The notes under the pieces were generated by a model. It worked only from the letters and a program-made list of their open reading frames with translations, made no database searches and had not been told where the DNA came from. Shown here piece by piece: positions 18,876 through 64,000 of a stretch of DNA of 64,000 nucleotides (its first letter is position 1; every line of letters begins with the position of its first letter). Made by a program: the position numbers and the translations under genes. The DNA comes from a virus. The stretch lies in IMG/VR virus record IMGVR_UViG_3300037423_002564. The stretch is one strand, 5' to 3'.

Positions 18876-18876
18876 C

Positions 18877-18935: not shown

Positions 18936-18957
18936 CCCGTTCGAGCAAGGAGCCGCC

Positions 18958-19311
18958 ATGTCCGTCGAGACCTACGCCCCGTCCCCGTTGGCCCAGACCA
19001 GCGGCCCCCCGAAGCCGCTCTCCGAGATGAGCGTGGCGGACGCCTCCCGCGTCTTGAGCAGCGAGCTGTCGTTCCTGAACGAGAAGCTGGACCGGCTCCT
19101 GACGCACGCGGCCGGTGATCAGCCGAACGTGAGCGCGGAGAAGATGCCGCCCACGGCGATGGGCGTCAAGGGCGAGTTCCAGACCACCGTGTCGATGCTG
19201 CAATACGCGCATACCCTGGTCGATCGCCTTGGCAAGGAATACGGCGTGATGCTGCCGGCGCAGTCCCAGCACGCGCTGAAGGCCGTCCACGTCGGCAACA
19301 GCCTCTCGTAA
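18958..19311 (+). CDS. Hypothetical protein
   Basis: AAGGAG RBS, ATG at 18958. Confidence 0.65.
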   Translation: MSVETYAPSPLAQTSGPPKPLSEMSVADASRVLSSELSFLNEKLDRLLTHAAGDQPNVSAEKMPPTAMGVKGEFQTTVSMLQYAHTLVDRLGKEYGVMLPAQSQHALKAVHVGNSLS

Positions 19312-31421: not shown

Positions 31422-31436
31422 CAGGAGGAACCTTCC

Positions 31437-41085: not shown

Positions 41086-41088
41086 CAC

Positions 41089-41445
41089 ATGAGGATTGCC
41101 GTGGAACAGCATTACGACCGCGTCTTGGCGGAGATTGGCCGGTACAACCCGCGCTGGTACGACGCCATGCACGTCGTGGACCTGGCGACCTGGCTGCGCA
41201 ACTGGAACGAGTCGGTGCTGCTGCGGCTGTACGCCGAGGCGCTCGCGGCCAAGAAGGCGGCGGCCAGCGCCTGGGAGCTGGCCCACGCGGCCAAGATCGC
41301 CCAGGCCGCCTACGTGGCGATGGACCCCGAGGACGTGCGCAAGGCGCTGACCGACCCGGTGATCCAGGCGCTCGTGGAGTCCTTGAGCGCGGATCGGCGG
41401 GCCGGCCTCCCTCCCTATAATACGGATGGAGGCCAGCCCGCGTGA
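41089..41445 (+). CDS. Small protein, possibly tail-assembly associated
   Basis: 118 aa between tape measure and large structural gene. Confidence 0.55.
   Translation: MRIAVEQHYDRVLAEIGRYNPRWYDAMHVVDLATWLRNWNESVLLRLYAEALAAKKAAASAWELAHAAKIAQAAYVAMDPEDVRKALTDPVIQALVESLSADRRAGLPPYNTDGGQPA
41416..41421 (+). promoter_or_regulatory. TATAAT -10 element
   Basis: CCCTATAATACGG, 21 nt above GTG 41442 with GGAGG RBS. Confidence 0.65.
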
Positions 41446-44400
41446 CCATCATCCCCGGTTCCGACCTCGCCAACCAGCTCGATGCCGAGCACGCCTCCGA
41501 CCGCACCCGGTCGGAGGCGCGTTACGTGCTGCTCAAGCTGCGCCTGGCCTACGCGAAGAACCGGACGCTCGCCATCCCGCCCACCACGGGCGGCACCCTG
41601 ACCGCGCTCAAGGAGATCACGCACACCGGCGACGGCGGCGGCGTGTTCTCGGCGGTGGTCAAGGAGGACACCGTGATCCCCGGCGGCACGGCCGCGGAGC
41701 TGCGCTTCATGGCGGCCGTGGGCCTGCCGGTGGCCGACGGCACCGACGCCAAGCTGGTGGTGCCGCCGAGCGGCCCCGTGCTGCTCAACGCCAGCCAGCT
41801 CCCCGACGCGCCCGACGACCAGGTGGACGCCGGCCACGTCTGGGTGCGCCTCAAGCAGCGCGTGGGCGGCTCCGATCCCAGCACGGGCGTGCAGATCGTC
41901 ACCAAGACCGGCCAGGGCGCCGACGCCCACCTGGAGGCCAAGGTCAACGAGCTGACGGTGCAGGCCGTCACCGCCGGCGGCCAGATCGGCTATCAGCCGG
42001 CCGTCGAGTGGCCGGTCATGAGCAGCCTGAACGCCACGGCCCAGATTGCCAACGTCGGGCTCCAGCGCGCCCACACGCTGGTGGACCCCGTCCGCACCTT
42101 CACCGGCCTGGTGACGGTGGGCGACTTCGTGCAGCTCGTGGCGAACGGCAACACCACGGACCCCAGCGTCGCCGGCAAGTTCTTTCGGGTCGAGGCCGTG
42201 GGCACGGGCACGCTCCAGCTCTCCTTGGCGCCCTACACCCGCATGCCGGACGGCACCTACGCCGCCCAGGCACTGGAGGCCGCCAACTACAGCAGCCCCT
42301 ACGACTTCAAGGTGGTGCGCGTCCAGACGGAGGCCGTGTTCCTGCGCCACGCCAGCCAGACCTTCGCGGGCATCAAGGCCGGCGACTACCTGCACGCACG
42401 CTGGACCGACACGCTGACGGCCCAGACCTTCGACAAGGTCTTCGTGGTGTCGGCCGTGCCGGCGCCGGGCCTCTTGCTCCTGGACGTGGTGGTCTACGCC
42501 GCCGGCAAGGCGCCCTACGGCGGGGCCATGACGGTCACGCCGGGCGACTACTTCTTGGAGAGCGCGGTGTACAGCCTGACGCGCGCGCCGGGCAACTTGA
42601 GCTACTTCCGCCTCACCAGCGTGGGGGCGCTCTTCACCCAGCGCGTGAAGGTCGGCGACTACGTGCGCTTCATCGCCCGCACGGGCATCCTCGACGCCAC
42701 GGCGGGCCCCGGCCCCATCGTGGGCAGCCCCAGCTACTACCGCGTGGCGACGGTGGCCTCGGACGACGTCGTGACCTTCGCGCCCACCAAGTACAAACAG
42801 GTCCTGCGCGACCCCGCCGACCCCGCCAGCGGCGAGTTCCAGCCGGAGGGCGCGAGCTTCTACCAGGACGTGGACACCTTCGTGGACTTCGAGGTCTACG
42901 CGGTGGCCGCGAGCTACCCGCACGCCACGGTCTGGAAGGTCACGGGCATCGCCCGCCAGGCCGGCACGGTGACGAGCTACGCGCTCGCCCGCGCCTTATA
43001 CGACGGCTACGGCGGCATCAACGGCGCGTTCACCGTGCATGCGGGCGTGGTGCCCGTGATCACGGACCACTACGACGTCGAGCTGATCCAGACCTTCCCC
43101 GACCAGCTCGTGCTGTACCACCCGACGGGCGACCTCTCGCGCCTGCACGCCTTCACGAGCACCCAGGCCGACTATATCAAGACCACGGCGCGCACCAGCG
43201 CTCCCGTCACGCAGGCCCCCGCGACCACCGTGGGCATCTACGCCGTGGCGGCCGTGCCGCGCAAGGACGTGGCCTTCCTGACGCCCGTGCGCCTGGCCGG
43301 CAGCAAGCCGAAGTACCAGGTCGACGCGCCCTTCCCGGCTACGCCCTTCGCCGACGCCTGCGACTACACGGCCGTGCGCGTGAGCGGCGAGTACCGCGCC
43401 GTGAGCTTCACCCTGACGAGCGGCACGGCGGAGGTCGGCGACTTCATGAAGCTCGACCAGGGCCCGCCGGAGGCGCGCGGCTACTGGAAGGTCACGGCCG
43501 TGGCCGGTCAAACCCTGACGCTCGACCCCAAGAACCGCTACGACCGCCTGGTGACGGAGGTCTTCGAGGCCGTGCCCCTCGACGCCCAGGACGTCACCAC
43601 GCTCGACCTCCAGGCGGCCGTGGGCTTCTACCGCAAGAGCGACCGCACCAGCACCCTGACCCTGGAGCGCGCGGGCACCAGCTTCAACGGCCTGCCCACC
43701 CTGCTTGACGTGCCCGGCCCCAACAGCGTGATCGACCACGGCGCGGTCGTCACGGTCTATACCGGCCCCGCGAACGCGCGCGTGACCCAGCACTTCCTCG
43801 TGACCATCGCCACCGCCACCAAGCTCTTCTTGTCGCCCGTGCCCCTGACGGTGGACGCCAACGGCACCTACAAGATGGGCTCGGCCGCGCTGTCGGTGGC
43901 GCAGGTGCTGCCGGCGGACTTCGTCGTGTACCAGGCCACGAGCCTCTTCACGGACGCCAGCGACAAGCTAACGTACCTACGCGACCACGTCATCGGCACC
44001 GCGCGCCTGGCGAGCCTGGACGCGACCTTCGGCCTGCTGACCCAGAGCAAGGACCCCGCCGACATGCAGGCGGTGGCCGACGCGGCCGTGCGCCAGGCGG
44101 CCAAGCTCGTGGCGGGCAACTACCAGTTCCCGGTGCCGGCGGAGCCGCCCATCAACGCGGTCACGCTGACGCCCGACGCGATCGCGAGCGGGCTCAACGA
44201 CGCGTCCTTCACCCAGGCCCGCGATGCCGGCTACGACGTGCTGGTGAGCTACCCGAACTACCAGATTGCCGTGGCCTTCGCCACCGCCGTGGACTTCCAG
44301 GGCTACTTCGACACGAAGACGCTCTCCGAGATGAAGGACGCCTTCGTCGAGGCGGAGCTGCTCTCGCGCGGCTACGCGGACTGGCTGGCCTTCATCGGGG

Positions 44401-46076
44401 CGGGCGCGGGCGTGGGGGTCGCCGCCCGATCGCAGCTCCGCCAGCGCGCCGTCGCCGGCCAGGCCATCGCGCGCAAGTACGTGGACGGCGTGGCCGCCGC
44501 GATGGGCGCGCGCGACCGCGCCGCTATCGAAACGTCGATTCGTTCCCAGCTCGACAACCTCGTAAACCTCGTCAAGACGCAGGTCCTGCCGGACGGCTAC
44601 GCGAACCCGTACCGCTTCTTCGTGCAGCCGGGGACGGTGCAGCTCAAGGCCGACTTCGTGGCCCAGCTCCTGGCCCTGCCCTTCGTGCCGGGCTTCACCT
44701 TGGGCCAGCTCCGCCAGGCGGAGACCGACCCGGAGCCCAAGGTGCGGCGCGACGCGCTCAAGGGCATGGTGGGCGTGCCGGCGGACCGCTCCTTGCGGGC
44801 CAAGCGCCGCTCGTTCGCGCTCTCGCGCAACCGCCAGAACTACCTGACGCGCATGGGGGAAGACCTCCAGCGCCACATTGACACGGCCACCCAGCCCGAC
44901 GTGAAGGCCCGGATGATGGACTTCATGGGCGAACTGAACGGCTGGGTGGACCAGGCCAAGACCACGGCCGAGGAGACCGTCGCGGACGTGGCCGACGACT
45001 TGCAGACGACCTTCACGGAGCTGGAAAATGCGGTCGACCCCAACGACGGCCAGACCGTCGCCGAGCAGGCGGAGGCGCTGGAGACCTTCGAGAGCGAGGG
45101 CCTCTTGCCGCTGACCGAGGTGGCGCCGTCGGAGGCCGCGGCCGTGACGGCCAAGGTGACGACGTTGTCCACCGCCAACGCCACGCCGGCGCGCCCGGCC
45201 GCGGCGGAGCGGCTGGTGATCACGAACCTGTTCACCAACGACTTCAACGACTTCCGCAAGACGGGCATCGCGGTAGGCTTGGATGTCTTCGACGCGGACG
45301 TCACGGACCCCAGCAACCGCTCGCGTCTGGCCTCCTTGTACCTCACGGACCTGGAGGACAACATCGTCTTGGGGCTCAACCTCAAGGGCTCGAAGGCCGG
45401 CACGTTCAGCGGAGAGCGCTACAACCAGTTCATCCTGACGACCGTGCAGGAGAGCTACGCCGACAAGTTCCAGGTCCAGGACACGCTGGGCGAGGGCTGG
45501 CTGGCGAGCGCCTTCGGCGAGCGGCCGGAGATCTGGAGCTTCTCGGGCGTGCTGATCAACGACGCCTACAGCGATCAGGTCTCCAAGTTCCGCGAGCTGT
45601 GGACCAACTTCATCCGCATCACCAAGCTCGCCAAGGGCAAGCGCAAGATGGCGATGGACGTGCCGGCGGCCGGCGTCCTGGTGGTGGGCTTCCCCATCAA
45701 CCTGACCTTGACCACCGACGCCAACCAGAACGAGAAGGTGGTGCCCTTCAGCATGCAGGTGCTGGTGAGCCGGGTGTACCGCAAGCCGCTGATCAACCTG
45801 GTCGACGTGGCGGAGCAGGCCATCCCGGCGGCCATCAGCAACATCCCGGCGGGCGGCAACCTCCAGCGGGCCACGGAGAGCGGCCAGGCGGACAAGGACC
45901 TGGCGGCCACCAAGCTCCAGCAGGAGTCGTTGGTCCACAAGCTCCAGATGGACGCCAAGAACGCGGTCGCCCCCGCGGCCAAGGCCGCCGCCGCCGCGCG
46001 CCTGGCCGACCCGACCGAGGCGCTGCGGCGCACCACCCAGACCATCCTGCAACGCAAGCTGCCGTTCCCGCTCTAA
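41442..46076 (+). CDS. Large tail/baseplate structural protein
   Basis: 1544 aa; beta-rich repeats; C-terminal FILTTVQES..FGERPEIWSFSGVL..VPFSMQVLV resembles tube/baseplate-initiator-type folds (tentative). Confidence 0.6.
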   Translation: MTIIPGSDLANQLDAEHASDRTRSEARYVLLKLRLAYAKNRTLAIPPTTGGTLTALKEITHTGDGGGVFSAVVKEDTVIPGGTAAELRFMAAVGLPVADGTDAKLVVPPSGPVLLNASQLPDAPDDQVDAGHVWVRLKQRVGGSDPSTGVQIVTKTGQGADAHLEAKVNELTVQAVTAGGQIGYQPAVEWPVMSSLNATAQIANVGLQRAHTLVDPVRTFTGLVTVGDFVQLVANGNTTDPSVAGKFFRVEAVGTGTLQLSLAPYTRMPDGTYAAQALEAANYSSPYDFKVVRVQTEAVFLRHASQTFAGIKAGDYLHARWTDTLTAQTFDKVFVVSAVPAPGLLLLDVVVYAAGKAPYGGAMTVTPGDYFLESAVYSLTRAPGNLSYFRLTSVGALFTQRVKVGDYVRFIARTGILDATAGPGPIVGSPSYYRVATVASDDVVTFAPTKYKQVLRDPADPASGEFQPEGASFYQDVDTFVDFEVYAVAASYPHATVWKVTGIARQAGTVTSYALARALYDGYGGINGAFTVHAGVVPVITDHYDVELIQTFPDQLVLYHPTGDLSRLHAFTSTQADYIKTTARTSAPVTQAPATTVGIYAVAAVPRKDVAFLTPVRLAGSKPKYQVDAPFPATPFADACDYTAVRVSGEYRAVSFTLTSGTAEVGDFMKLDQGPPEARGYWKVTAVAGQTLTLDPKNRYDRLVTEVFEAVPLDAQDVTTLDLQAAVGFYRKSDRTSTLTLERAGTSFNGLPTLLDVPGPNSVIDHGAVVTVYTGPANARVTQHFLVTIATATKLFLSPVPLTVDANGTYKMGSAALSVAQVLPADFVVYQATSLFTDASDKLTYLRDHVIGTARLASLDATFGLLTQSKDPADMQAVADAAVRQAAKLVAGNYQFPVPAEPPINAVTLTPDAIASGLNDASFTQARDAGYDVLVSYPNYQIAVAFATAVDFQGYFDTKTLSEMKDAFVEAELLSRGYADWLAFIGAGAGVGVAARSQLRQRAVAGQAIARKYVDGVAAAMGARDRAAIETSIRSQLDNLVNLVKTQVLPDGYANPYRFFVQPGTVQLKADFVAQLLALPFVPGFTLGQLRQAETDPEPKVRRDALKGMVGVPADRSLRAKRRSFALSRNRQNYLTRMGEDLQRHIDTATQPDVKARMMDFMGELNGWVDQAKTTAEETVADVADDLQTTFTELENAVDPNDGQTVAEQAEALETFESEGLLPLTEVAPSEAAAVTAKVTTLSTANATPARPAAAERLVITNLFTNDFNDFRKTGIAVGLDVFDADVTDPSNRSRLASLYLTDLEDNIVLGLNLKGSKAGTFSGERYNQFILTTVQESYADKFQVQDTLGEGWLASAFGERPEIWSFSGVLINDAYSDQVSKFRELWTNFIRITKLAKGKRKMAMDVPAAGVLVVGFPINLTLTTDANQNEKVVPFSMQVLVSRVYRKPLINLVDVAEQAIPAAISNIPAGGNLQRATESGQADKDLAATKLQQESLVHKLQMDAKNAVAPAAKAAAAARLADPTEALRRTTQTILQRKLPFPL

Positions 46077-46085
46077 GGAGACCCC

Positions 46086-47543
46086 ATGGCACTCACCATC
46101 CAGTTCGGTTCGTGGACCAGCAGCCCGACCCAGGCCAGCGTGAGCTGGCAGGTGCAGGACCTCCAGGCGGACGGCATCGCCCAGGTCGAGGTGGCGATCG
46201 CCAAGGAGGGCGACCCCTTCGTGTACACCGTGGCGCCCGGCGCCAACGGCACGCTGACGCTGCCCACGGACCAGTACCAGGGCGACGTCATCGCGAGCGT
46301 GCGCGCCACCGACTTCTCGGCCCAGACCGTGACGGGCGAGAGCAGCGTGACGGTCGACAACTTCGTCGCCCCGCTGCCGGCGACCTGGCTGCGCTACGAG
46401 AACCCGCAGCCCTTCAGCCTGCGCTTCGAGTGGGACGCCCTGGCGCTCTCGCCGGCCAACGCGGCCTGGCGCATCGTCAACCTCAAGCGCGACAACACGG
46501 AGGTGGTGCTGGCGGAGGTGCCGGTGGCCGACCGCACGGCGCTCGTGGCGACGCCCCTGGTGGACCTGTACCAGGTGCGCATCTACGGCGTCGACGCCTA
46601 CGGCAACCTGTCGGCGCCGAGCCCCACCTTGCACTTCGCCCTGGGCGGCGACGGCCCGGGCATCACGCTCCAGCCCTGGGTGATCAGCTCCAACGCGGCG
46701 CTCATCCGCTGGGTGGCGCGCTCCGACCAGTTCATCACGGCCGTCAACTGGCGCTTGGAGGACGATCGCGGCATGGTGCTGACCGGCACGGGCCTGCCCA
46801 TCGGCGAGGCCAGCATCCCGGTGGACGGCTACCAGGGCACGGTGCGCTTCTACCTCACGGTCTCGGACGCGCTGGACCGCAGCTCGACCGCGAGCAGCCA
46901 GGCGGGCGTCTACAACGTGGCCCCGCCGGCGCCCCTCGTCATCATCGAGGAGGTGGGCATCCACTTCGTGCGCGTGCGCGTGCTGCCGGCGGAGCCCGGG
47001 CCCGTCGAGGTGCCCGTGACGCTCGCGAACATCTTCGGGCCGGGCGGCGAGGTCTTCGAGCCGCTGCCCTTCGTCCACACCTTCAGCGGCCTGACGCAGG
47101 CCACCAGCTACGCCTTCGCCGCCCGCCTGATGACGCCCTCGGGCTTCAAGGGCGCGCAGAGCGAGACGGTGACGGCGAGCACCCTGGTCGACCCCAACTA
47201 CGTGCCGCCGGAGCTGCCCGGCTACACCGGCGGGCCGTTCCTGCCGCGCATCCAGGCGCTGTTGACCGAGCCCGTGCGCCACTTCGTGCTCCAGATGTTC
47301 GTCGACACGCGCCTGCGCGCGCCCACCGCCGCGCAGCTCGTGAGCGCGCCGCCGGGCTTCGACGCCGTGCTAGAATTGTTCACCGCCGTGGGCCCCTTCC
47401 TGGGGGACATCCTGCGCCGCGAGACCGCGGACGAGGAGACCCACCAGGCCGCCCTGCTGATCGACGCGCTCGCGGATCCGCTCGCCAAGTGCGCCGTGCT
47501 GTGCGAGCGGGTGGAGTTCGGCTTCATCTTTAACCAAGGGTAG
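46086..47543 (+). CDS. FN3-repeat structural protein
   Basis: Repeated beta-sandwich motifs, e.g. FSGLTQATSYAFAARL..SETVTAST. Confidence 0.65.
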   Translation: MALTIQFGSWTSSPTQASVSWQVQDLQADGIAQVEVAIAKEGDPFVYTVAPGANGTLTLPTDQYQGDVIASVRATDFSAQTVTGESSVTVDNFVAPLPATWLRYENPQPFSLRFEWDALALSPANAAWRIVNLKRDNTEVVLAEVPVADRTALVATPLVDLYQVRIYGVDAYGNLSAPSPTLHFALGGDGPGITLQPWVISSNAALIRWVARSDQFITAVNWRLEDDRGMVLTGTGLPIGEASIPVDGYQGTVRFYLTVSDALDRSSTASSQAGVYNVAPPAPLVIIEEVGIHFVRVRVLPAEPGPVEVPVTLANIFGPGGEVFEPLPFVHTFSGLTQATSYAFAARLMTPSGFKGAQSETVTASTLVDPNYVPPELPGYTGGPFLPRIQALLTEPVRHFVLQMFVDTRLRAPTAAQLVSAPPGFDAVLELFTAVGPFLGDILRRETADEETHQAALLIDALADPLAKCAVLCERVEFGFIFNQG

Positions 47544-47563
47544 TACCGACCGACCGAAGGGCC
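47539..47563 (+). promoter_or_regulatory. Operator array
   Basis: GGTAGTACC GACCGACC GAAGGGCC filling the gap between two CDS. Confidence 0.6.
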
Positions 47564-47567
47564 CTCC

Positions 47568-50500
47568 GTGAGCAGCGCACAACCCAACAACGTCGCCATC
47601 AACCTCGAAGGCCGCATGGCCCTGTACGTGGAGGGCGTGCGCTGCCCCTTCACGGAGGTGCAGCTCGTCACCGAAGACGGCATGATCCCGCGCATCGTCT
47701 TCACCATCCCGCCCAGCCCGACGATGCGGGATCTGCCGCGGCGCGCGCGCCTGCACTTCATCGTGCGCGAGCTGGTGAAAGACGAGTGGATCGTGATGTT
47801 CGAGGGCGAGGTGATGAGCCGCGGCTTCCGCAAGACGCCGCAGAGCCGCGACCTGACCTTCATGGGCTACCACGTGGCCGGCCACCTCGACCAGTACGCC
47901 ATCAGCGCGCTCGATCCCACCGCCAAGACCCAGGCCACGATGCAGGCGGCCCCGGAGTTCCGCACCGCGAGCCTGGCGTCGGTCAACGGCACGATGCTCG
48001 CGCTGTTCAACCCCACCGTGATCGCGGCCCTCGTGGGCACCGACCCGGACAAGCTCACCTACCCCGACTTCATCCAGGGCGCGCGCCAGCGTTACGAGCA
48101 GGTCGTGGAGAAGAGCCGCATCGCGGAAGCCTACCCGCACGAGGCCGTGAAGTTCCACCGCATCTTCGACCGCATGAAGGGCGCGCTGCCCGACAAGGAC
48201 CTGTTCGACTGGGACGAGTTCTACTCCAAGCTCATGATCCAGGTCTTCAACTTCGGCACCCAGACGGTGGGCGGGCGCGTGACCTTCTTCGAGTTCCTGC
48301 GCCATATGAGCCAGTTCTTCCTGCACCAGGTCAGCGTGCTGCCAAACGCGGAGCACTGGACCAAGCAGATCCAGGTCCGCCCCAACACGTTCTTCCACCC
48401 CATCCCGCGCTGCAACATCATCTACAGCTCGCTCTCGGAGGAGTACGCCTACGAGGAGAACTACGAGACCAAGCCCACGCGCCTGGAGGCCCACTTCCTG
48501 CCCCTGGGCACGGCGCCGGGCCAGAACATGAGCGCGGTGGCGCGCTTCACCACGGTCTACGCGCCCAACGAGCTGCAAGAGAGCTGGAAGCGCATCACCG
48601 ACGCCCTCGACGAGGGCGGCACCACCGTGGACGCCACGATGGACGAGGACAAGGACGGCAAGCCCATCGTCAACGCGCCCAAGGACGGCATCAAGTTCCT
48701 GACGCGCGAGGAGGAGCAGCGCGGCATCATCGGCGCGTACTACGACATCCCGCAGACGCTCCAGCACGCCATCATGAGCCTGGTCGAGCACCCGGCGGGC
48801 GCCCAGGAGTCGAGCCCCATGCGCCAGGTCGACCCGGCCAAGGCGTCGGAGCACGGCCAGAAGGTGCTCAAGGGCACCGCGGAGGTCGACCGCATCGAGA
48901 AGTACCGCGCCTTCTTGTGCATGGCCCTGGGCGACGGTGGCGGCATCAAGCCGGGGCGCTTCGGCGCCAAGCAGCCCTTCGAGGACTACCGCCGGCCGGG
49001 CCAGTTGCTGCACATCCTGACGGGCTCCAACGACAGCCGCTTCGGCAAGGTGCCCAAGATCGTGCCGCGCCGCCTCACGGTGGTGCCCCTGAACCTCACG
49101 CCGCACTACGTCGAGAACACGCAGAAGGCGGGCTTCAAGCACCCCGACAACAAGAGCCCCTTCATCGGCTCGGGGGTGAACTACTTCGTGGACGCCAACG
49201 GCAACCTGCTCCAGGTGCTGCCCCGGCGGGCGCACCTGTTCACCCAGCCGTCCGCCGTGCCCTTCGGCATGGTGGTCTCGGGCGTGGCGGAGGACGAGCT
49301 GGCGGAGATCAACACGGGCATGTTGTCGCTCAACCAGAAGCGCACGGAGGCCACCGACACGCCCTTCTTCGTGGGCACCGTGACGCGCACGCCGTTCACG
49401 GAGAACGACCTGGGCAACAAGGTCCAGTACTGGCCGCCGGAGCTGACGGCCGCGGGCATCCCCAACCCGGACGCCGGCTTCGGCCAGCCGCTGGGCGAGT
49501 TCTACTTCGACGAGCGCGTGGGCGTCGGCGACCCCACGCTCAAGGGCACGGCCGTGTTCGGCGCGGCCGACTTCGCCAAGATCGAGAAGAACCGCAGCGA
49601 GTTCACCATCAGCAGCTACACCGGCGCCTTCAACTACATCGGGCAGCGCGACCAGAAGGCCACCATCGTCGACGCCCGCGCGATCGCGGTCGCCGGCAAC
49701 AAGGCGGTCTACTGGATCAAGCTCAACCGCGCGATCGTGGCGCCGCTCGCCAAGCACCGCGTGCTGATCCAGAACAAGAGCCACGAGGGCAAGCAGGTCG
49801 CCCCCAACAAGCCCTGGGTGCTCATCCCGCCCTCGAAGCGCGGCGAGGCCAAGGCCGGGCCCAAGGTGCCGGTCAGCGTGACCTCGCTCAAGTCCATCAC
49901 GGCCAAGTCCAGCATCAGCAACCCCGACCAGACGTCGGGCGGCAACCACTTCAACTTCGCGGTGGGCGTGGAGACGCGCGACGGCCGCATCACGCCCAAG
50001 GCGGAGGCCACGCTCGCCTGGCTCTCGGCGGTGGTGATGGAGCTGACGGCGGAGCACGTCGGCACGCTCAAGGCGCCCGTGCCCAACCAGGCCCAGCGCC
50101 AGCCCAAGCTGGGGGCCGGCGCGCTCTTCGAGATCGCCGACTACTACCATGCCGCGAGCGGCTACCGGCGCCTGGCCGCGGGCACCATGGACCGCGTCAG
50201 GGCCAAGGCCCAGCAGCTCGCGAGCCAGCTCTACAAGGACTTCAACGTCTTCGACAAGGAGCTGACGGACGGCCAGCTCCAGAGCCTGACCGACATCACC
50301 TTGACGGAGAACACCGGGCCGGGCACCTTCACCCAGATCCCCGGCGACATCAGCAACCAGACCGACACGGGCGCGGGCGCGGACGCCGCGGCCAGCTCCG
50401 CCGCCGGCGCCAGCAGCGCCTTCACGGAGGGCGTGCAGGTGACGCTCGACAAGAAGATGCTCGACAACTTCGTCGACCACTACATCGCGGCCATCGTGAA

Positions 50501-51443
50501 CTACGAGTACTACAACCTGCGCTACGCCGCCCAGGGCTTCTCCGCCCAGACGGTCTTCAACCCCTACGCGGTGGTGGGCTACCCGTGCCTGCTCCTGGAC
50601 AACTCCGACGCCAAGTACCACCTGGTGGGCTTCCTGCACTCGACCGCCCACATCTTCCACGGCGACGGCCAGGCGTACACCAGCATGACCTACAGCCATG
50701 TGCGCAACGCGCGCTGGGAGAAGCTGCTGCCCTACTCCAAGGGGGTGGACCAGTACTTCCTCTTCCGCGACGTCAAGCCCTGGCGTGACGGCGAGGCGTA
50801 CCGCAACGAGTACCACGCCCGCCTCAAGGCGCTCAACCCGCCGGCCTTCATCGGTGCCGACGATCCGCGCAGCTTCATCCCCTGGGAGCTGATGGACTAC
50901 CGCTCGAAAGCCACCCCGCCCTTCATGTACTCGGGCGGCTTCGGCTTCGACAAGGACATGAAGCGCGACTTCAAGGCCCTCGCGGCCTACGTGGGCTACG
51001 TGGACGGCGCGAGCGTGGCGACCGACCTCGAAGCCGCCAACCAGTTCGTGTACGCCGACGACCCCTTGGTCAACTTCGCGGACGACGCCGCCGGCGAGGG
51101 CGAAGGGTTGTCCGGCACGGCCGCGACCAACGAGGACATCGACGCGCGCCGCGCCTTGGAGCTGATCTACCGCAAGGTGCAGAAGATCGACCAGCTCGAC
51201 CCGGAGAAGAGCCAGGCGTCCCTGGTGGCCTTCGTGCATGGCGAGACCCGCCACTACGACGATCCGCCCATCAACATCGACGTCTACCAGGCCACCCCGG
51301 AGATCGGCAAGGACGGCTTCCCCGTGCGCAAGATCAAGGACGACGGCACGGTGGACGGGGCGATCGCCTGGCAGACGGACATCCAGAACCGCGTGTACGC
51401 CCATCTGGATCTGGTCCGCCAGCGCACCGCCATCCGCGGATAG
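47568..51443 (+). CDS. Baseplate hub-like protein with internal amidase/PGRP-like segment
   Basis: N-terminal LYVEGVRCPFTEVQL..FTIPP..VMFEGEV hub-like strands; internal GVNYFVDANGNLLQVLP..FAVGVET. Confidence 0.6.
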   Translation: MSSAQPNNVAINLEGRMALYVEGVRCPFTEVQLVTEDGMIPRIVFTIPPSPTMRDLPRRARLHFIVRELVKDEWIVMFEGEVMSRGFRKTPQSRDLTFMGYHVAGHLDQYAISALDPTAKTQATMQAAPEFRTASLASVNGTMLALFNPTVIAALVGTDPDKLTYPDFIQGARQRYEQVVEKSRIAEAYPHEAVKFHRIFDRMKGALPDKDLFDWDEFYSKLMIQVFNFGTQTVGGRVTFFEFLRHMSQFFLHQVSVLPNAEHWTKQIQVRPNTFFHPIPRCNIIYSSLSEEYAYEENYETKPTRLEAHFLPLGTAPGQNMSAVARFTTVYAPNELQESWKRITDALDEGGTTVDATMDEDKDGKPIVNAPKDGIKFLTREEEQRGIIGAYYDIPQTLQHAIMSLVEHPAGAQESSPMRQVDPAKASEHGQKVLKGTAEVDRIEKYRAFLCMALGDGGGIKPGRFGAKQPFEDYRRPGQLLHILTGSNDSRFGKVPKIVPRRLTVVPLNLTPHYVENTQKAGFKHPDNKSPFIGSGVNYFVDANGNLLQVLPRRAHLFTQPSAVPFGMVVSGVAEDELAEINTGMLSLNQKRTEATDTPFFVGTVTRTPFTENDLGNKVQYWPPELTAAGIPNPDAGFGQPLGEFYFDERVGVGDPTLKGTAVFGAADFAKIEKNRSEFTISSYTGAFNYIGQRDQKATIVDARAIAVAGNKAVYWIKLNRAIVAPLAKHRVLIQNKSHEGKQVAPNKPWVLIPPSKRGEAKAGPKVPVSVTSLKSITAKSSISNPDQTSGGNHFNFAVGVETRDGRITPKAEATLAWLSAVVMELTAEHVGTLKAPVPNQAQRQPKLGAGALFEIADYYHAASGYRRLAAGTMDRVRAKAQQLASQLYKDFNVFDKELTDGQLQSLTDITLTENTGPGTFTQIPGDISNQTDTGAGADAAASSAAGASSAFTEGVQVTLDKKMLDNFVDHYIAAIVNYEYYNLRYAAQGFSAQTVFNPYAVVGYPCLLLDNSDAKYHLVGFLHSTAHIFHGDGQAYTSMTYSHVRNARWEKLLPYSKGVDQYFLFRDVKPWRDGEAYRNEYHARLKALNPPAFIGADDPRSFIPWELMDYRSKATPPFMYSGGFGFDKDMKRDFKALAAYVGYVDGASVATDLEAANQFVYADDPLVNFADDAAGEGEGLSGTAATNEDIDARRALELIYRKVQKIDQLDPEKSQASLVAFVHGETRHYDDPPINIDVYQATPEIGKDGFPVRKIKDDGTVDGAIAWQTDIQNRVYAHLDLVRQRTAIRG

Positions 51444-56800: not shown

Positions 56801-59800
56801 ATGCGCACCCCCCAGGAAACCTTCGAGGCGATGAAGCAGGAGATCGCGGCCGGGCTGACGGCCGCGTTCCCCGTCACCAGCGGCAAGCGCACGCTGGAGC
56901 TTCACGACGTCCAGTTCGACCCGATGCCCGGTCATGACGACTGGAACGGGCAGAAGGAGGCGTCGCTCACCAACAAGACCTGGGGCGCGCCGGTGCGCGG
57001 CACCTTCAGCCTGAAGGACGAGCACGGCAAGACCATCGAGAAGAAGAGCGTGCGGTTGGGGCTCCTGCCCACGCCCACCAACCGCCACACCTTCATCGTG
57101 GACGGCCGCGAGTACCAGGTCAGCAACCAGCGCCGGCTGGGCCCGGGCCTGTACACCAAGGTCAACCGGCTGGGTCAGGCGCTGGCCGACTTCCAGGTCA
57201 AGCACGGCCGCAACTTCAGCGTGGGCCTCGACCCCGCGAGCAACCAGTTCTACATGAAGTACGCCAACACCCACATCCCGCTCACGGCCGTGATGCAGGG
57301 CCTGTGGCACGACGGCCCCGCGGTGGGCAAGGCGTTCGAGCACGAGCACACGCCGCAGGAGGTGGACGACGCGCTGCACACGCTGTGGGCCGAAACCCAG
57401 CGGGAGCCCGCGCCGACGAAGCCCGATGAACTCAAAATGAAGCTACGCGACTACTTCAATAAGACCACCATGGACCCCGCGGTGAACCAGATGACGGTCG
57501 GCCACGGCCACCCCACGGTGAACGTGCAGGCGCTCCAGGACGCCGCGAAGCACGTCTTGGAGATCCACCGCGGCGAGCGCATGCCCAGCGGTCGCGACGA
57601 CCTGGGCTTCGCCGACATCCACGGCGTCGAGGACTTCCTGCGCGAGCGGCTGGAGGGCGGCAAGGGGCTCATCGCGGCGAAGCTCCGCCAGAAGCTCGAC
57701 CGGGCGGATGGCCTGGGCGGCCTGAACCTGCAAGGGGCGATCGCCCCGCAGTTACATAACTTCTTCACCACCAGCGAGATGTCGAACAACCCCATCCAGG
57801 TCAACCCGCTGGAGATGAAGGAGAACGCCTTCAAGCTGACCTCGATGGGCAAGGGCGGCATCGGCGACTCCAACGCCATCCCGGCGGAGGTACGCGCGAT
57901 CCACCCCAGCCAGAGCGGCTTCATCGACCCCGTGCGCACGCCGGACAACGCCAAGGCCGGCGTGGACGTGCGCGCGACCTTGGGCGCGAAGAAGGTGGGC
58001 AAGCGCATGCAGGCGCCGATGGTGAACGTCAAGACCGGCAAGACGGAGATGCTCACGCCCCAGCAGCTCTACGACAAGTTCGTGGCCCACGACAAGGAGA
58101 CGCCCATCAACGGCTTCGTGCGCGCCATCCACCGCGGCCAGATCGTGGACGTCGACCCCAAGCAGGTGGACTACCACATCCCGACCGAGCAGGCATGGAC
58201 GGTCTCGACGGCCCTGGTGCCGTTCCTACCCAACAGCCACGCCCACCGCGCGGCGATGGGGGCGAAGATGCTGGGCCAGGCGCTGTCGCTCGCGGAGCGC
58301 GAGCGCCCGATCGTCGACACCCTGCACTCCGACGAGGCCATCCAGGGCCTCTTGCCCGTGGCGCCGGTGGCGGGCACGGTGCATCGCATCACGCCCGGCG
58401 TGGTCACGATCAAGGACGCCCAGGGCGGCCTGCACCCGGTCCACTACGCCCACGAGTTCCCGCTCAACGGCGGCAGCTATCTGGATACGAAGCTTCATTT
58501 CCAGGTGGGCGACACGGTCAAGAAGGGCACGGTGCTGGGCGACAACAACTTCACGCAGGCCGGCTCGCTGGCTCTCGGGAAGAACCTGCACGTCGCCATG
58601 CTGCCGCTCGAAGGCCACAACTACGAGGACGGCATCGCGGTCACGGAGACCGGCGCGAAGAAGCTCACGAGCCTGCACCTGCACACCGAGGAGGTCGAGG
58701 CCGACGAGCGCACGGTCAACGACCTGACGCGCTTCCGCGCGCACTTCCCGGGCAAGTTCGAGGTCTCGCACCTCGCCAAGCTCGACGACAAGGGCGTGGT
58801 CAAGGTGGGGCAGACCCTCAAGGAGGGCGACCCCATCTTCGCGATGCTGCGCAAGCGCGTGACCAACCCGGAGAGCCTGATCCTGGGCAAGGCCCACAAG
58901 AGCCTGATGGAGCCCTACCGCGACGCGAGCGTGGTCTGGGAGAAGCCCTACGAGGGCAAGGTCACGGCCGTCGCCAAGACGCCCAAGGGCTTCAAGGTGA
59001 CGATCGCCGCGGCGGCGCCCGCACAAATTGGCGACAAGCTGGCCGGGCGCTTCGGTAACAAGGGCGTCATCACGACCATCATCCCCGACCACGAGGCGCC
59101 GCGCACCGTCGACGGCAAGATCCCCGACGTGTTCCTCAACACGGCCGGTCTGCCCAGCCGCATGAACCCGGCCCAGATCTACGAGATGGCCGCCGGCAAG
59201 GCGCTCCAGGCCATGGGCAAGGCCACGGAGAAGTTCCCCCAGTTCTTGGGGGTCAACAGCCACACCTTCGTGAAGAAGCTCGTCGCCAAGGCGGGCGTGA
59301 CGGAGCGCGACACCTTCATCGACCCCAAGACCGGCCTGAAGCTGCACGACCCCGTGCTGAACGGCCCGATGTACATGCTCAAGCTGTTCAAGCAGGCGGA
59401 CACGGGCTACAGCGCGCGCTCCGGCGGCGCCTACGACATCGACCTGCGCCCGGCCAAGGGCGGCGAGGAGGGGGCGAAGTCCGTGGGCACGCTCGACCTG
59501 GCCGGGCTCCTGGCCCACGGCGCGACCAGCTTCCTGCGCGAGGCCGCGACCTACAAGGCGGAGTATAACCCGGAGGTCTTCGCGCACATGTGGCGCGGGC
59601 TGCCGCTGCCGCCGCCCAAGCCGACCTTCGCCTACAACAAGTTCCTCACGATGGTGCAGGGCATGGGGCTCAACGTCAAGAAGGACGGCTCCAAGCTGAT
59701 GCTGCTGCCGATGCGCGACGCCGACACGCTCGCCATCAGCAGCGGGCCCGTCACCAAGCCGCTCACGGTGATGGACAAGGAGGATCCGCACACCAACCTG

Positions 59801-61096
59801 CCCTTCCGGCCGGAGGAGGGCGGCCTGTTCGACCCCACCACCACCGGCGGCCTGGTGGGCAACCGCTGGAGCCACATCACGCTGGCCGAGCCCGTCGTCA
59901 ACCCGCTCTTCCACCACCCCGTGCGCACGATCCTGGGGATGAGCAAGCAGGAGTTCAAGGACACGCTGGCCGCGGAGGGCGGCGCCAGCATCGCCAAGCG
60001 GTTGGGCACCGTCAACCCGGGCGCTCGCATCGAGGCCCTCAAGAAGGAGCTGAAGACCACCAACGCCACGGCGCGGCGGGACGACATCTACAAGCAGCTC
60101 CGCTACCTCACGGCCCTGGACAAGAACGGCCTGCGGCCGGACGACGCCTACGTGATGAAGCACGTCCCGGTGGTGCCGCCCACGATCCGCCCGATCTACC
60201 CGGACGCCGACACCGGCCAGGTCACGGTCTCCGACGCCAACCGGCTGTACCAGAACCTGATGCTCGTCTCCGACCAGCTCGCCGCCCATGCCAAGGACGG
60301 CGACCCGGAGACGGTCAAGGCGCTGCGGGTCGGCCTGCATGACGCGGTTGCCAAGGTGCAGGGCCTCGACGGCAACGCGGAGGCCATCGTCAAGGCCGGC
60401 GAGCGCGAGCCCAAGGGCTTCCTCCAGATCATCACGGGCGGCCGGGCCAAGGAGGGCTTCTTCCAGTCCAAGCTGATGACCCGCCGCCAGGACGTGGCCG
60501 GCCGCGGCGTGGTGGTGCCCGACCCCAGCCTGGGCATCGACGACATCGGCATCCCCGAGGCCCAGGCGTGGAAGCTCTACCGCAACCACGCGGTGGGCGA
60601 GCTGGTGAAGAGCGGCATGCCGCTGACGGCCGCGGCGGAGGCGGTGGAGTCCCGCAACGCGACCGCGCGCACGGCGCTCGACCTCGCGATGAAGAACGCG
60701 CCCCTGATCCTCTCGCGCGCGCCCAGCCTGCACAAGTTCAACTTGCAGGCGTTCAAACCGCAGGTGGTGGGCGGCAAGAGCATCCGCGTGAACAACCTGA
60801 TCCACAAGGGCTTCAACATGGACCACGACGGGGACGCCTGCAACCTGCACGTCCCCCTGGGCCCGGAGGCGATCGCCGACGCCTTCCGTATGATGCCCTC
60901 CAACAACCTCTACAACCCGCTGAACCGCAACCCGGTCCACCAGCCGACCAACGAGACCACGATGGGGCTCTGGAAGGTCACGAACGTGGGCGAGAGCAAG
61001 CCCACGCGCCACTTCGCGAGCCAGGCGGAGGCGGTGGCCGCCTTCAAGCGCGGCGACATCCGTATCGACGAGCCCATCGAGATCACGGGCCTATAA
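56801..61096 (+). CDS. Phage multisubunit-type RNA polymerase: beta fused to the N-terminal part of beta'
   Basis: beta motifs GGIG..RAIHPSQSGFIDPVRTPD, PFL..RAAMGAKM, GHNYEDG, GDKLAGRFGNKG, PSRMN, MYMLKL..AR..G.Y; beta' motifs GGLFD, HITLAEPV, PVVPPTIRP, SRAPSLH, catalytic NMDHDGD (60815-60835). Confidence 0.95.
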   Translation: MRTPQETFEAMKQEIAAGLTAAFPVTSGKRTLELHDVQFDPMPGHDDWNGQKEASLTNKTWGAPVRGTFSLKDEHGKTIEKKSVRLGLLPTPTNRHTFIVDGREYQVSNQRRLGPGLYTKVNRLGQALADFQVKHGRNFSVGLDPASNQFYMKYANTHIPLTAVMQGLWHDGPAVGKAFEHEHTPQEVDDALHTLWAETQREPAPTKPDELKMKLRDYFNKTTMDPAVNQMTVGHGHPTVNVQALQDAAKHVLEIHRGERMPSGRDDLGFADIHGVEDFLRERLEGGKGLIAAKLRQKLDRADGLGGLNLQGAIAPQLHNFFTTSEMSNNPIQVNPLEMKENAFKLTSMGKGGIGDSNAIPAEVRAIHPSQSGFIDPVRTPDNAKAGVDVRATLGAKKVGKRMQAPMVNVKTGKTEMLTPQQLYDKFVAHDKETPINGFVRAIHRGQIVDVDPKQVDYHIPTEQAWTVSTALVPFLPNSHAHRAAMGAKMLGQALSLAERERPIVDTLHSDEAIQGLLPVAPVAGTVHRITPGVVTIKDAQGGLHPVHYAHEFPLNGGSYLDTKLHFQVGDTVKKGTVLGDNNFTQAGSLALGKNLHVAMLPLEGHNYEDGIAVTETGAKKLTSLHLHTEEVEADERTVNDLTRFRAHFPGKFEVSHLAKLDDKGVVKVGQTLKEGDPIFAMLRKRVTNPESLILGKAHKSLMEPYRDASVVWEKPYEGKVTAVAKTPKGFKVTIAAAAPAQIGDKLAGRFGNKGVITTIIPDHEAPRTVDGKIPDVFLNTAGLPSRMNPAQIYEMAAGKALQAMGKATEKFPQFLGVNSHTFVKKLVAKAGVTERDTFIDPKTGLKLHDPVLNGPMYMLKLFKQADTGYSARSGGAYDIDLRPAKGGEEGAKSVGTLDLAGLLAHGATSFLREAATYKAEYNPEVFAHMWRGLPLPPPKPTFAYNKFLTMVQGMGLNVKKDGSKLMLLPMRDADTLAISSGPVTKPLTVMDKEDPHTNLPFRPEEGGLFDPTTTGGLVGNRWSHITLAEPVVNPLFHHPVRTILGMSKQEFKDTLAAEGGASIAKRLGTVNPGARIEALKKELKTTNATARRDDIYKQLRYLTALDKNGLRPDDAYVMKHVPVVPPTIRPIYPDADTGQVTVSDANRLYQNLMLVSDQLAAHAKDGDPETVKALRVGLHDAVAKVQGLDGNAEAIVKAGEREPKGFLQIITGGRAKEGFFQSKLMTRRQDVAGRGVVVPDPSLGIDDIGIPEAQAWKLYRNHAVGELVKSGMPLTAAAEAVESRNATARTALDLAMKNAPLILSRAPSLHKFNLQAFKPQVVGGKSIRVNNLIHKGFNMDHDGDACNLHVPLGPEAIADAFRMMPSNNLYNPLNRNPVHQPTNETTMGLWKVTNVGESKPTRHFASQAEAVAAFKRGDIRIDEPIEITGL

Positions 61097-61116: not shown

Positions 61117-61485
61117 ATGTTCGACGCGCACACCGCCTACATGGCCCGGGTCAAGGTCGCCCTCGACACCGACAGCCGCGACCCGATCAACCAGGTCTCC
61201 GCCGCCGGCGCGGGCCTCGGTGCGGCCACCGGCGCCGCCCTCGTCCACAAGGCCGTGGCCCCGCACGTCGCGATGGCGAAGGACGAGGCCAACTACCTGA
61301 AGACCTTCCACGCCGGCAAGCCCGTCCCCCTGATGGACAGCCTGCGCATCAACCGCGGCACCGGCTTCGCCGGCAAGGTGCATGGCGGTGCGATGCTCGC
61401 GGGCGCCGCCGCCGGTGCGATCCTGGGCGCCGCGCCCGGCGTCGTGATGGCGCTGGGCAACAAGTTCGGGGAGCCCGAGCATTGA
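61117..61485 (+). CDS. Putative internal virion protein (two glycine zippers)
   Basis: GGAGG RBS; MFDAHTAYMARVKVA leader; AAGAGLGAATGAA and GAAAGAILGAAPG. Confidence 0.65.
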   Translation: MFDAHTAYMARVKVALDTDSRDPINQVSAAGAGLGAATGAALVHKAVAPHVAMAKDEANYLKTFHAGKPVPLMDSLRINRGTGFAGKVHGGAMLAGAAAGAILGAAPGVVMALGNKFGEPEH

Positions 61486-64000
61486 CGACGCCCTGGGACG
61501 CCTACCAGGCCCAGAAGCAAGCCGCTCCTACCCCCGAGGCCCTGCGCCACCTGCGCCGGCTGGAGGGGTCCGTCGGCGGCACGAAGGCCGACTTCGTCTT
61601 CGAGCTGGCGAAGCAGAACGACCCCGACTTCACACTGGCGGACGTCAAGGATGCCGAGCGCGAGGCCAACCAGCGCTGCATGCGCTGCGAATGCGACCTG
61701 TCCGACTGCGAGTGCCCGGGCGGCCCCGAGCACTTCAAGCGCGCATCGATCATGGACGGCATGCAGTGGGATCCCGACCACCTGGCCGCCTTCATCGAGG
61801 CCGGCCGGAACAACTGGAAGGCGCTCTTCGGCGACAAGACTGAGGCCGACCTCAAGGCGGAGTACCGCGAGCGGCTGCTGCGGGACGGCAGCTCGTGGCC
61901 GGAAGGGTCGCGGGGCTACCAGATGGACCTCGACGACCTGGCGGCCAACCCGCCCGTGCCCGGCGAGCCCGGCTACGCGCCCTGGTTCGCGCGCACGATG
62001 AAGCACCGGCTGGGACAGGGGGGCTCGCGGCCGGGGCGGGACTACGACAACCTCCTGGCGCGTGTGCATGCCCGCCGGAACGGCCTGCCGGAGCCGGAGC
62101 TGACCAAGGCCGCGGCCGTGGACTGGAAGAACCGCCCGGGCGTGCGCGCCGTCGTCACCGACGAGCGCGATCGCGTGCTGCTGCTCAAGCGGCCCGCCAA
62201 GGAGGAGTTCCACCCCAACACCTGGAACCTGCCCGGCGGCGCCAAGGAGCCCGACGAGGGATTCCGCACGGGCGCCCTGCGCGAGCTGAAGGAGGAGACC
62301 GGCCTCACCGCGACCCCCACCGGCCAGCGCCACGTCTTCACGTGGCCGGGCGGCCGGGGCGAGGCGTTCGCGATGGAGGAGCCCCGGGGCACGCTGAAGC
62401 TCCAGGCCAAGGAGGTGGCGGAGGCGCGCTGGTTCGACCCGGCCAAGCTGCCCAAGAAGCTCTTCCCGCAGACCGCGGCCATCGTGCAGGCGCTGGTGGC
62501 GAAGCGCGCGGCCTTGAAGAAGGACGTCGAGCTGATGCCGCACCAGCAGGCCGCGGTGAGCAAGGTGCTCGCCAACGACGGCTCCTTGCTGGTGGCCCAC
62601 GGTACGGGCACCGGCAAGACGCCGACCTCCGCCGCGGCCGTCGAGGCCCTGCGCGCGAAGGGCAAGGCCCACATCACGCTGGCCGTCACGCCGGCCGCGC
62701 TGCGCGAGAACATGATCGAGGGCGGCGTCCATAAGTTCACCGACCAGAAGGGCGTGATCCTGGGCGCCAAGGGCGAGCCGGGCACCACCCACATCGACCA
62801 CCCCAGCCTGCCGGAGGCCAGCTACTACGCGGTCTCCAACGAGATGTTCCGCAAGGACCCGCACAAGTACATCGACAAGACCCACGCCGACACCATCGTC
62901 TGGGACGAGATCCACAAGGGCCGCGACGACGAGACCGCGAACTACGCGGCGATGATGGCGGTCCGCCCCAAGGTGCGCAACTTCATCGGGCTGACCGGCA
63001 CCCCCGTGAACAACCATCCGCGCGACATCGTGCCCGTGCTCGACATCGTAACGAACAAACGTCACGGGTTGGGGGCGGCCAAGGGCAAGGGGCCGAACAC
63101 CTTCGAGAACCGCTTCATGGAGACCGTGGAGAAGCACCACGGCCCCCTGGGCTTCCTGGGCATCGGCCCCAAGAGCACGGAGACCCGCCTCAAGCACACG
63201 GACTACCTCCAGCACGAGTTGAGCAAGCACGTCCACTACGTGCCGACCGAGGACGTGGCGAAGGACATGCCGGCCAAGGAGGTCCACGACGTCGAGGTGC
63301 CCATGAGCGGCCACCAGCAGAACCTGTACCACTTCGCGATGAACAAGATCGACCCGATGACGCGCTGGAAGATCCGCATGAACCTGCCCGTGGGCCAGGG
63401 CGAGGCCCAGCACATCTTCGCGCGCATCACCAAGGCCCGCCAGGTCTCCAACGCCGTCCACACGCTGGACGGCAAGCACGATCCGCGCTCCAGCGCCGAG
63501 GCCACCCCCAAGATCCACCGCCTGGTCGAGGACGTGGACCGGGAGATGAAGGCCCACCCGAACAACAAGGCCATCGTCTACACCAACTTCGTCCATGGCG
63601 GCGTCGACGCGGTGGCGGAGGGCCTGCGCGCGCGCGGCCACGACCCCGGCTTCTTCCTGGGCTCGACCCACCAGACCCGCAAGGACCGCGCGCAGCATGT
63701 CCAGGACTACTTGAGCGGCAAGCGGCGCATCATGATCATCAACAGCGCCGGCACCGAGGGCCTCAACCTGCCCGGCACCACCAGCCACCACACGCTCGAC
63801 CCGCATTTCAACCCGGCCGTAACCGAGCAGCAGGAGGCCCGCGGCATCCGCGCCGGATCGCCGGTCAAGAGCGTGCGGGTCTACCGCTACCGCTCCACCC
63901 TGCCGCGCGGGATGGGCGGCTTCCTGCCGGCCGAGACCAGCGCCGACCAGTGGGTGCAGAACACGGCCGACCGCAAGGAGAAGCTGAACCACCAGTTCTT
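61482..64000 (+). CDS. Nudix hydrolase - SNF2/Swi2 helicase fusion, partial (absent from the ORF track because it has no stop in the window)
   Basis: TTG start (TTGA overlap); Nudix box GAKEPDEGFRTGALRELKEETGL (62238-62306); Q-motif LMPHQ, Walker A GTGTGKT, DEIH, LTGTP, helicase-C AGTEGLNL and QQEARGIR. Confidence 0.9.
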   Translation, partial: MTTPWDAYQAQKQAAPTPEALRHLRRLEGSVGGTKADFVFELAKQNDPDFTLADVKDAEREANQRCMRCECDLSDCECPGGPEHFKRASIMDGMQWDPDHLAAFIEAGRNNWKALFGDKTEADLKAEYRERLLRDGSSWPEGSRGYQMDLDDLAANPPVPGEPGYAPWFARTMKHRLGQGGSRPGRDYDNLLARVHARRNGLPEPELTKAAAVDWKNRPGVRAVVTDERDRVLLLKRPAKEEFHPNTWNLPGGAKEPDEGFRTGALRELKEETGLTATPTGQRHVFTWPGGRGEAFAMEEPRGTLKLQAKEVAEARWFDPAKLPKKLFPQTAAIVQALVAKRAALKKDVELMPHQQAAVSKVLANDGSLLVAHGTGTGKTPTSAAAVEALRAKGKAHITLAVTPAALRENMIEGGVHKFTDQKGVILGAKGEPGTTHIDHPSLPEASYYAVSNEMFRKDPHKYIDKTHADTIVWDEIHKGRDDETANYAAMMAVRPKVRNFIGLTGTPVNNHPRDIVPVLDIVTNKRHGLGAAKGKGPNTFENRFMETVEKHHGPLGFLGIGPKSTETRLKHTDYLQHELSKHVHYVPTEDVAKDMPAKEVHDVEVPMSGHQQNLYHFAMNKIDPMTRWKIRMNLPVGQGEAQHIFARITKARQVSNAVHTLDGKHDPRSSAEATPKIHRLVEDVDREMKAHPNNKAIVYTNFVHGGVDAVAEGLRARGHDPGFFLGSTHQTRKDRAQHVQDYLSGKRRIMIINSAGTEGLNLPGTTSHHTLDPHFNPAVTEQQEARGIRAGSPVKSVRVYRYRSTLPRGMGGFLPAETSADQWVQNTADRKEKLNHQF

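Follow-up and report, generated by a model that had tools for sequence, protein, structure and literature searches.

A fused beta-beta'N chain and a separate beta'C as the probable core of a bacterial-type RNA polymerase in an uncultured phage

In Helicobacter and Wolbachia, the C-terminus of the RNA polymerase (RNAP) subunit beta is covalently joined to the N-terminus of beta' (rpoBC fusion). These are full-length cellular subunits accompanied by alpha2 and omega, and their beta' is unsplit. In cyanobacteria and plastids, beta' is divided after the catalytic barrel into RpoC1 (gamma) and RpoC2, and cyanobacteria possess an unfused beta as well as alpha and omega. The phage-encoded RNAPs of the phiKZ/AR9 type lack alpha and omega, have a beta' split after the barrel, and are accompanied by a virion-packaged version and an SNF2-type helicase (PMC7598289; PMC7824862). 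Their beta' splits were reported to coincide with the cyanobacterial boundary (PMC7598289). Here, a 64,000-nucleotide stretch of DNA (the window) from the uncultured virus IMG/VR record IMGVR_UViG_3300037423_002564 was analyzed, in which one gene encodes a beta-beta'N fusion; a beta'C gene was found beyond the end of the window. Together, the two genes very likely encode the two-polypeptide core of a phage-encoded, bacterial-type RNAP, i.e., one with two double-psi-beta-barrels (DPBB).

This layout differs from each of the systems named above. Unlike Helicobacter and Wolbachia, the phage has a divided beta' and no recognizable alpha or omega, and unlike cyanobacteria it has a fused beta. In phiKZ/AR9-type phages, beta is encoded in two or three pieces that are never fused to beta', two paralogous RNAP sets are present without any sigma70-family factor, and the sequences are far more divergent, whereas here one uninterrupted, fused beta belongs to a single set accompanied by sigma-like genes. 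For the mReC phages (Weinheimer and Aylward 2020), the defining traits are a Gp23-type capsid and a beta and a beta' from separate genes, each of 800 amino acids (aa) or more; fusion is mentioned there only for crAss-like phages (PMC7481178). In the phage studied here, the genes are both fused and split, and the capsid family PF07068 (Gp23) gave no match. The beta' of Rhizobium phages is unsplit, unfused and only 23% identical.

The window corresponds to positions 15088-79087 of a complete record that measures 203,733 bp, carries direct terminal repeats and has 69% GC. With a GC content at third codon positions (GC3) of 0.97, the fusion frame is open far beyond chance. Pfam matches to Rpb2_3 (E 2e-6) and Rpb2_6 (E 4e-50) lie across residues 333-880 of its product, and matches to Rpb1_1 and Rpb1_2 (E 8e-22 for Rpb1_2) across residues 1077-1365. 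Solved bacterial beta chains from the PDB cover residues ~25-975 (best E 4e-71), and solved beta' chains cover residues 1027-1430 (best E 7e-46). The beta alignment reaches the conserved C-terminal helix (...GLNVK), equivalent to residue 1143 of 1183 in S. aureus-type beta. The beta'N module, which follows a KKDGSK linker, aligns to Streptomyces beta' 255-627 and Thermus beta' 468-831 and ends 86 residues after the catalytic loop NMDHDGD. The original prediction, made from the letters of the window, had described a compact beta, a KKDGSK linker and a beta'N terminating shortly after NMDHDGD, and the Pfam and PDB alignments agreed with its coordinates. The N-terminal Cys4 zinc-binding domain of beta' is absent: C1347 is the sole cysteine of the whole fusion, and none is found in the region 1008-1035. 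In the HMMER alignment, PESLILGKAH sits opposite the bacterial flap-tip helix with several gaps. A flap tip retained for use with an adjacent sigma factor had been proposed; the segment is present, but it is shortened, and the nearest sigma-like gene lies 3.5 kb upstream rather than directly adjacent.

Bridge helix and trigger loop are encoded neither in the fusion nor, as had been noted before, in its neighbors in the window, where the next large open reading frame (ORF) encodes a Nudix-SNF2 protein. A separate beta'C gene had been predicted to exist elsewhere, and it was found on the same strand 4.2 kb downstream of the fusion and 1.3 kb past the window end. Pfam Rpb1_5 and phrog_25354, a beta' family of 1216 positions, matched this second locus (genome 80473-81882), and the coverage of phrog_25354 was complementary, with positions 609-1099 at the beta'C locus and 168-540 on the fusion. 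The beta'C protein carries Rpb1_4 besides Rpb1_5 and matches residues 578-1063 of beta' in solved enzymes (E 1e-42). It contains the bridge helix (residues 194-221), the trigger-loop helix with its His (residues 314-337) and all four cysteines of the second zinc site (Cys229/287/294/297). Its true start is 'MITTVGQ' (M74 of the ORF, genome 80425), from which the alignment with gp216 of the cultured Salmonella phage Arash spans residues 2 to 614; this end-to-end alignment excludes a 73-codon TTG-initiated extension of the ORF, which was rejected as spurious. Since only one beta' barrel (PF00623) locus is present across the complete genome, the phage has a single RNAP set. A reading of beta-beta'N as a stand-alone enzyme was rejected. 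The coordinates of all features are given in Table 1.

Table 1. Features of the RNAP locus (window positions unless stated otherwise).
Feature	Coordinates	Strand	Evidence
beta-beta'N fusion gene (P0001), 1431 codons	56801..61096	+	ORF and translation, Pfam, PDB matches
Compact beta module, residues 1-959, with beta DPBB and flap	56801..59677	+	Alignment to bacterial beta
Flap-tip segment PESLILGKAH, residues 690-699, shortened	58868..58897	+	HMMER alignment
KKDGSK linker, residues 960-965, from beta C-terminal helix to beta' N-terminus	59678..59695	+	End of beta alignment
beta'N module, residues 966-1431 (466 residues): clamp helices, catalytic DPBB, conserved C-terminal tail, no Cys4 zinc domain	59696..61093	+	
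beta' clamp helices, ~residues 1141-1182, predicted sigma docking site	60221..60346	+	Complex model and sequence position
Catalytic loop NMDHDGD, residues 1339-1345, three Asp retained	60815..60835	+	
122-aa gene P0124, first in cassette, AGGAGG ribosome-binding site and ATG	61117..61485	+	Translation, leader alignment
Nudix-SNF2 helicase gene, 845 aa	61482..64000, on to window-equivalent 64019	+	Pfam NUDIX, SNF2-rel_dom, Helicase_C
HNH-like endonuclease, 124 aa	genome 79110-79484 (window-equivalent 64023-64397; L005:138-512)		Pfam HNH 20.9 bits, just under cut-off; clear motif
beta'C gene, 614 aa	genome 80425-82269 (window-equivalent 65338-67182, outside window)	+	Pfam, PHROG, PDB, Arash gp216 alignment
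sigma70-family-like protein, 235 aa	52570..53277	+	Weak Pfam, phrog_351, structure likeness
Upstream co-oriented genes: 311 aa, sigma-like, 233 aa, 793 aa, 139 aa	51634..56792	+	ORFs, GC3 > 0.95

A database search yielded 343 relatives, and 118 homologue cluster representatives were compared, 49 of which are split forms and 69 continuous beta-beta' chains of ~2000-2100 aa. The single-chain RNAPs of uncultured large phages (P0047, P0048) are 34-38% identical to the proteins studied here and have the same short beta/beta' junction, but they form one continuous polypeptide, whereas here a break after the beta' barrel is followed by 4.2 kb of other genes. In pairwise BLAST, fusion residues 3-1431 corresponded to residues 5-1473 of P0047 and beta'C residues 3-614 to residues 1475-2053; P0060, P0072 and P0084 were likewise tiled by the two halves without loss or overlap. 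The junction in P0047 coincides with a segment of 32 residues of Streptomyces beta' (628/661) that is missing throughout the family, P0047 and P0048 included. The chain is therefore broken cleanly where a surface loop behind the beta' barrel is shortened. An apparent 200-residue overlap of the halves was an artefact of a global MAFFT alignment of 120 homologues, in which the C-terminal tails of the short forms were pulled far downstream. Some split and some single-chain relatives carry inteins. Inteins or large inserts were observed at two recurrent sites, right after DxDGD and at beta'C residue ~331-348 near the trigger loop (P0011, P0021-P0026, P0029, P0043, P0050, P0067, P0071, P0079, P0091, P0096).

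In view of the full-length single-chain relatives, the stop at 61094 might be put down to faulty sequencing or assembly, or to a recent pseudogenising mutation, in a gene whose true product is a single chain. However, 44 of the 49 split forms, down to 33% identity, stop 87-95 aa past DxDGD, i.e., within a 9-residue span and with a conserved tail (the other five, P0069, P0092, P0101, P0110 and P0104, end 29-135 aa past it), and the fusion genes of Arash and Vibrio phage D69 terminate at the same point. In addition, 4.2 kb with four other genes separate the two halves, and beta'C has its own start, which matches that of Arash gp216. As judged from these comparative data, the error reading is already refuted and its probability is negligible; the stop is real. 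Protein trans-splicing by a split intein could also reunite the translated halves, given that inteins are common in the family and are inserted just after DxDGD and in the beta'C of relatives. This is very improbable, since beta'N ends and beta'C begins flush with contiguous residues of the single chains, leaving no room for intein fragments, and Pfam searches of both proteins detected no intein domains.

The same fusion is present in Arash (gp206 with gp216; OQ632216), where it is 33% identical over the full length, and a fusion of the same type, 31% identical over the full length, is found in the Vibrio phages D69, D148 and D181. Arash gp216 is a separate beta'C of ~606 aa that is 28% identical from end to end. 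Like the phage studied here, Arash encodes an orthologue of the SNF2 helicase, sigma genes and RNAP genes located among structural genes; the cassette between the halves differs, and its helicase follows beta'C and lacks the Nudix domain. On the contigs of other split relatives, a beta'C of ~600 aa lies downstream on the same strand, as here. The fused-and-split layout is, by this comparison, the rule in a large natural phage clade that includes Arash, cultured on a laboratory Salmonella strain, and is not unique to this phage. With this qualification, the distinct phage RNAP architecture proposed originally is supported. In the open-access literature, including the Arash paper, the mReC paper and reviews on jumbo phages and RNAP, no account of beta-beta' fusion for this lineage was found; in the Arash paper, the genes are simply called 'beta' and 'beta-prime', without comment on the fusion (PMC10585845). 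The parallel drawn before to the cyanobacterial split holds for the inter-domain region, which is the same, but not for the residue: compared with 8h3v chains E and B, phage beta'C starts ~16 residues before the RpoC2 start, and gamma extends ~64-74 residues past the end of phage beta'N.

With regard to the order of events, the unrooted tree required two changes of state, and a single clade of all split forms was not rejected (p-value of the approximately unbiased test, p-AU, 0.195). When beta and beta' of Salmonella and Staphylococcus were used as outgroup, the root fell among full-length forms, and all split forms together with the full-length P0030 formed one clade (Shimodaira-Hasegawa-like approximate likelihood ratio test, SH-aLRT, 100). 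A caveat is that this tree came from a fast LG+G4 search and that its outgroup branch is long. Since bacterial beta' is unsplit, the unsplit single chain would be ancestral under either rooting outside the split clade. The split is, on these trees, a derived state of a fused single-chain ancestor, and it probably arose once. The P0030 contig (L010) encodes at 10001-16969 a full-length chain of 2048 aa, next in the tree to one split subclade (split A), with a Sigma70_r2 gene directly after it. A re-fusion of two halves or a misplacement in the tree is possible for P0030.

The gap of 4.2 kb between the halves contains, in this order, the 122-aa gene, the Nudix-SNF2 gene, the HNH-like endonuclease gene and a 209-aa gene. 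The 122-aa gene fills an apparent gap of 385 nt after the fusion stop and had been missed by the ORF listing; its product has Gly/Ala-rich hydrophobic stretches, as does the 139-aa protein upstream of the fusion. The SNF2 part of the Nudix-SNF2 protein is 30% identical to the Arash virion protein gp217 (E 2e-51). No family match was obtained for its N-terminal 215 residues (61482-62500), which lie ahead of the Nudix domain and include a Cys-rich CxxC/CxC stretch. A 57%-identical relative (P0014 contig, L008) has nine genes in the gap, among them an SNF2 helicase gene and a response-regulator-GGDEF gene (18056-18958), and the gap is filled by just two small genes in a relative belonging to the other split subclade. 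The flanks are conserved in relatives, with a large protein, a small protein and the fusion before the cassette and beta'C followed by a protein of ~240-270 aa after it. Since the gap content varies among relatives while the flanks stay conserved, the split site is, in the genomes compared, a variable insertion point. In Vibrio phage D181 (L014 4462-9976), the beta part of the fusion gene is disrupted, leaving ORFs of 514 aa and 1006 aa with ~950 bp including a homing endonuclease between them; the D148 fusion gene is likewise interrupted in its beta part by a homing-endonuclease gene, while that of the sibling D69 (L007 8962-13545) is intact. An intron or a recent gene split may account for the interruption in D181, and the cases of D181 and D148 show the kind of event by which these genes can be broken. 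Such breakage agrees with how the phiKZ-type splits were earlier proposed to have arisen (PMC7598289).

In this two-polypeptide core, the first gene product provides compact beta, the six-residue linker and beta'N with the clamp helices and the Mg-binding NMDHDGD barrel, and the second supplies the remainder of beta', including the bridge helix and trigger loop, the second zinc site and the C-terminal clamp. A fused ancestor was split by a clean break at the surface loop behind the beta' barrel, and the site has taken up a variable gene cassette. The original prediction had suggested looking for alpha-like genes in the rest of the genome, but neither alpha (PF01000, PF01193) nor omega (PF01192) gave a match in the complete genome, with positive controls in 14 of 14 genomes. 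Probably, the covalent beta-beta' link replaces the alpha dimer as assembly platform; host alpha or omega may also be used by the phage enzyme.

Two sigma-like genes were found. The gene for the 235-aa protein belongs to the same co-oriented gene string as the fusion, and the second ORF, at genome ~116.9-117.9 kb, has a clear Sigma70_r2 match. The 235-aa protein matched Pfam Sigma70_r3 and r4 below the cut-offs, without an r2 match, and it matched phrog_351; its language-model features were similar to viral Sigma70_r3 clusters (0.98), and its structural template-modelling (TM) score to SigF-type factors was ~0.5. In a complex model with beta'N, the 235-aa protein scored 0.79 as compared to 0.26 for the best control, a mark attained by 51 of the 78 solved complexes and by 2 of the 108 mismatched pairs. 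In the model, its residues 14-60 and 87-97 contact the stretch 1141-1182 of beta', identified by sequence position as the clamp helices. The model indicates a likeness to the canonical sigma2-clamp-helix contact rather than binding, and it may owe its score to memory of solved sigma-beta' complexes.

It is most likely, judging from the docking, that the enzyme uses phage sigma70-family factors, one of them from the same operon. Alternatively, the sigma-like proteins could serve the host RNAP, and the phage RNAP could use another, unrecognised initiation factor, as in phiKZ and AR9. The RNAPs of these types use non-sigma specificity subunits (PMC7598289; PMC13282480), the flap-tip helix is shortened here, and the complex model cannot distinguish which family member binds. 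This alternative is nevertheless unlikely in view of the docking of the 235-aa protein on the phage clamp helices well above the best control, of sigma genes that adjoin or lie near the RNAP genes in two relatives, and of the sigma factor present in Arash virions. As for the time of action, the fusion gp206 was the most abundant protein in the virion proteome of Arash (3516 spectra, 128 unique peptides), and gp216, the helicase gp217 and the sigma factor gp10 were also detected in the particles (PMC10585845). Tail-fibre-like genes lie directly upstream of the RNAP operon. An N-terminal leader, M-x-T-P-[YWQ]-[DE]-A-[YF]-x-A, is shared by six neighboring proteins (alignment A1), namely the 311-, 793-, 139- and 122-aa proteins, the fusion and Nudix-SNF2 (starts 51634, 53988, 56373, 56801, 61117 and 61482 in the order of the genes), and close RNAP relatives (50-64% identity) retain it as MRTPQETF. 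It resembles the capsid-targeting sequence of T4, a likeness to be read as a lead only, and it is possible by this analogy that the leader is a capsid-sorting signal. Because of the Arash virion proteomics, the position next to tail-fibre genes and the leader on six proteins, it is on balance favoured that the enzyme is packed in the capsid with the SNF2 helicase, is injected and starts transcription independently of the host. The same two-gene RNAP could instead be a non-virion enzyme made after infection for middle and late genes, with early genes being transcribed by a sigma-redirected host RNAP. Phage sigma factors commonly redirect host RNAP, and only one RNAP set is present here, as compared to the virion and non-virion sets of phiKZ-type phages. 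Nonetheless, this seems rather unlikely given the rank of gp206 in the Arash virion together with gp216, gp217 and gp10, the location of RNAP genes beside structural genes in this phage, Arash and relatives, and the leader common to the fusion, the helicase and their neighbors.

Several points weigh against the two-polypeptide, virion-delivered, sigma-dependent enzyme. In this phage, the assembly and activity of the enzyme, its use of sigma and its packaging are predictions. The Arash authors suggested a role in early transcription or else co-purification of an abundant enzyme (PMC10585845), and the latter would also fit a non-virion RNAP. The Arash-like homologues are without the leader. No T4-type prohead protease (PF03420) was recognisable in the genome, so that capsid targeting is without its expected partner, which likewise speaks for a non-virion enzyme. 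The 793-aa upstream protein showed no similarity to the Arash portal and belongs to no PHROG or Pfam family.

The preferred reading, a phage core enzyme delivered with the virion, can be extended tentatively, though with some doubt. An alpha- and omega-free, sigma-dependent RNAP and an SNF2 (RapA-like) helicase, sorted by the leader, might form an in-capsid starter kit, in which the beta-beta' link would replace the alpha platform. Homing endonucleases might keep the break open as a hot spot of recombination, and the lineage would then show, in a present-day case, how beta' came to be split in cyanobacteria and in phiKZ-type phages.

Further observations concern the surroundings of the operon. 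The co-oriented block upstream (window 29778-33995 and 36481-51443) encodes a galactose-binding/Ig-like protein, a tail-fibre-like protein and then four large proteins; the large upstream proteins (1534, 1544, 485 and 1291 aa) had no family matches. The motif GGTA[GC]TACC, often followed by GA(A/C)CGACC, occurs 15-30 nt ahead of several start codons (window 47539 and 51605; genome 79485, 101856, 102320, 109045, 118498, 130044, 135363 and 185504). The genes concerned include the one that opens the RNAP operon and the 209-aa gene that precedes beta'C; the motif is a candidate phage promoter or operator.

In reviews up to 2026, only the phiKZ/AR9-type (and Straboviridae-associated) multisubunit RNAPs, which are sigma-less, are described for large phages (PMC7598289; PMC13282480). 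Here, a different and numerous phage lineage has a much more bacterium-like enzyme, made of one chain or one and a half, with sigma-like partners. The window contributes the split form together with its exact junction, the direction in which the change went, the gap cassette and the sigma docking model. With respect to annotation, the genes are better named beta-beta'N and beta'C than 'beta' and 'beta-prime'. The lineage offers a natural experiment on the need for the alpha dimer, on where beta' tolerates a break and on how RNAP genes become split, and the cultured phage Arash makes these questions directly testable.

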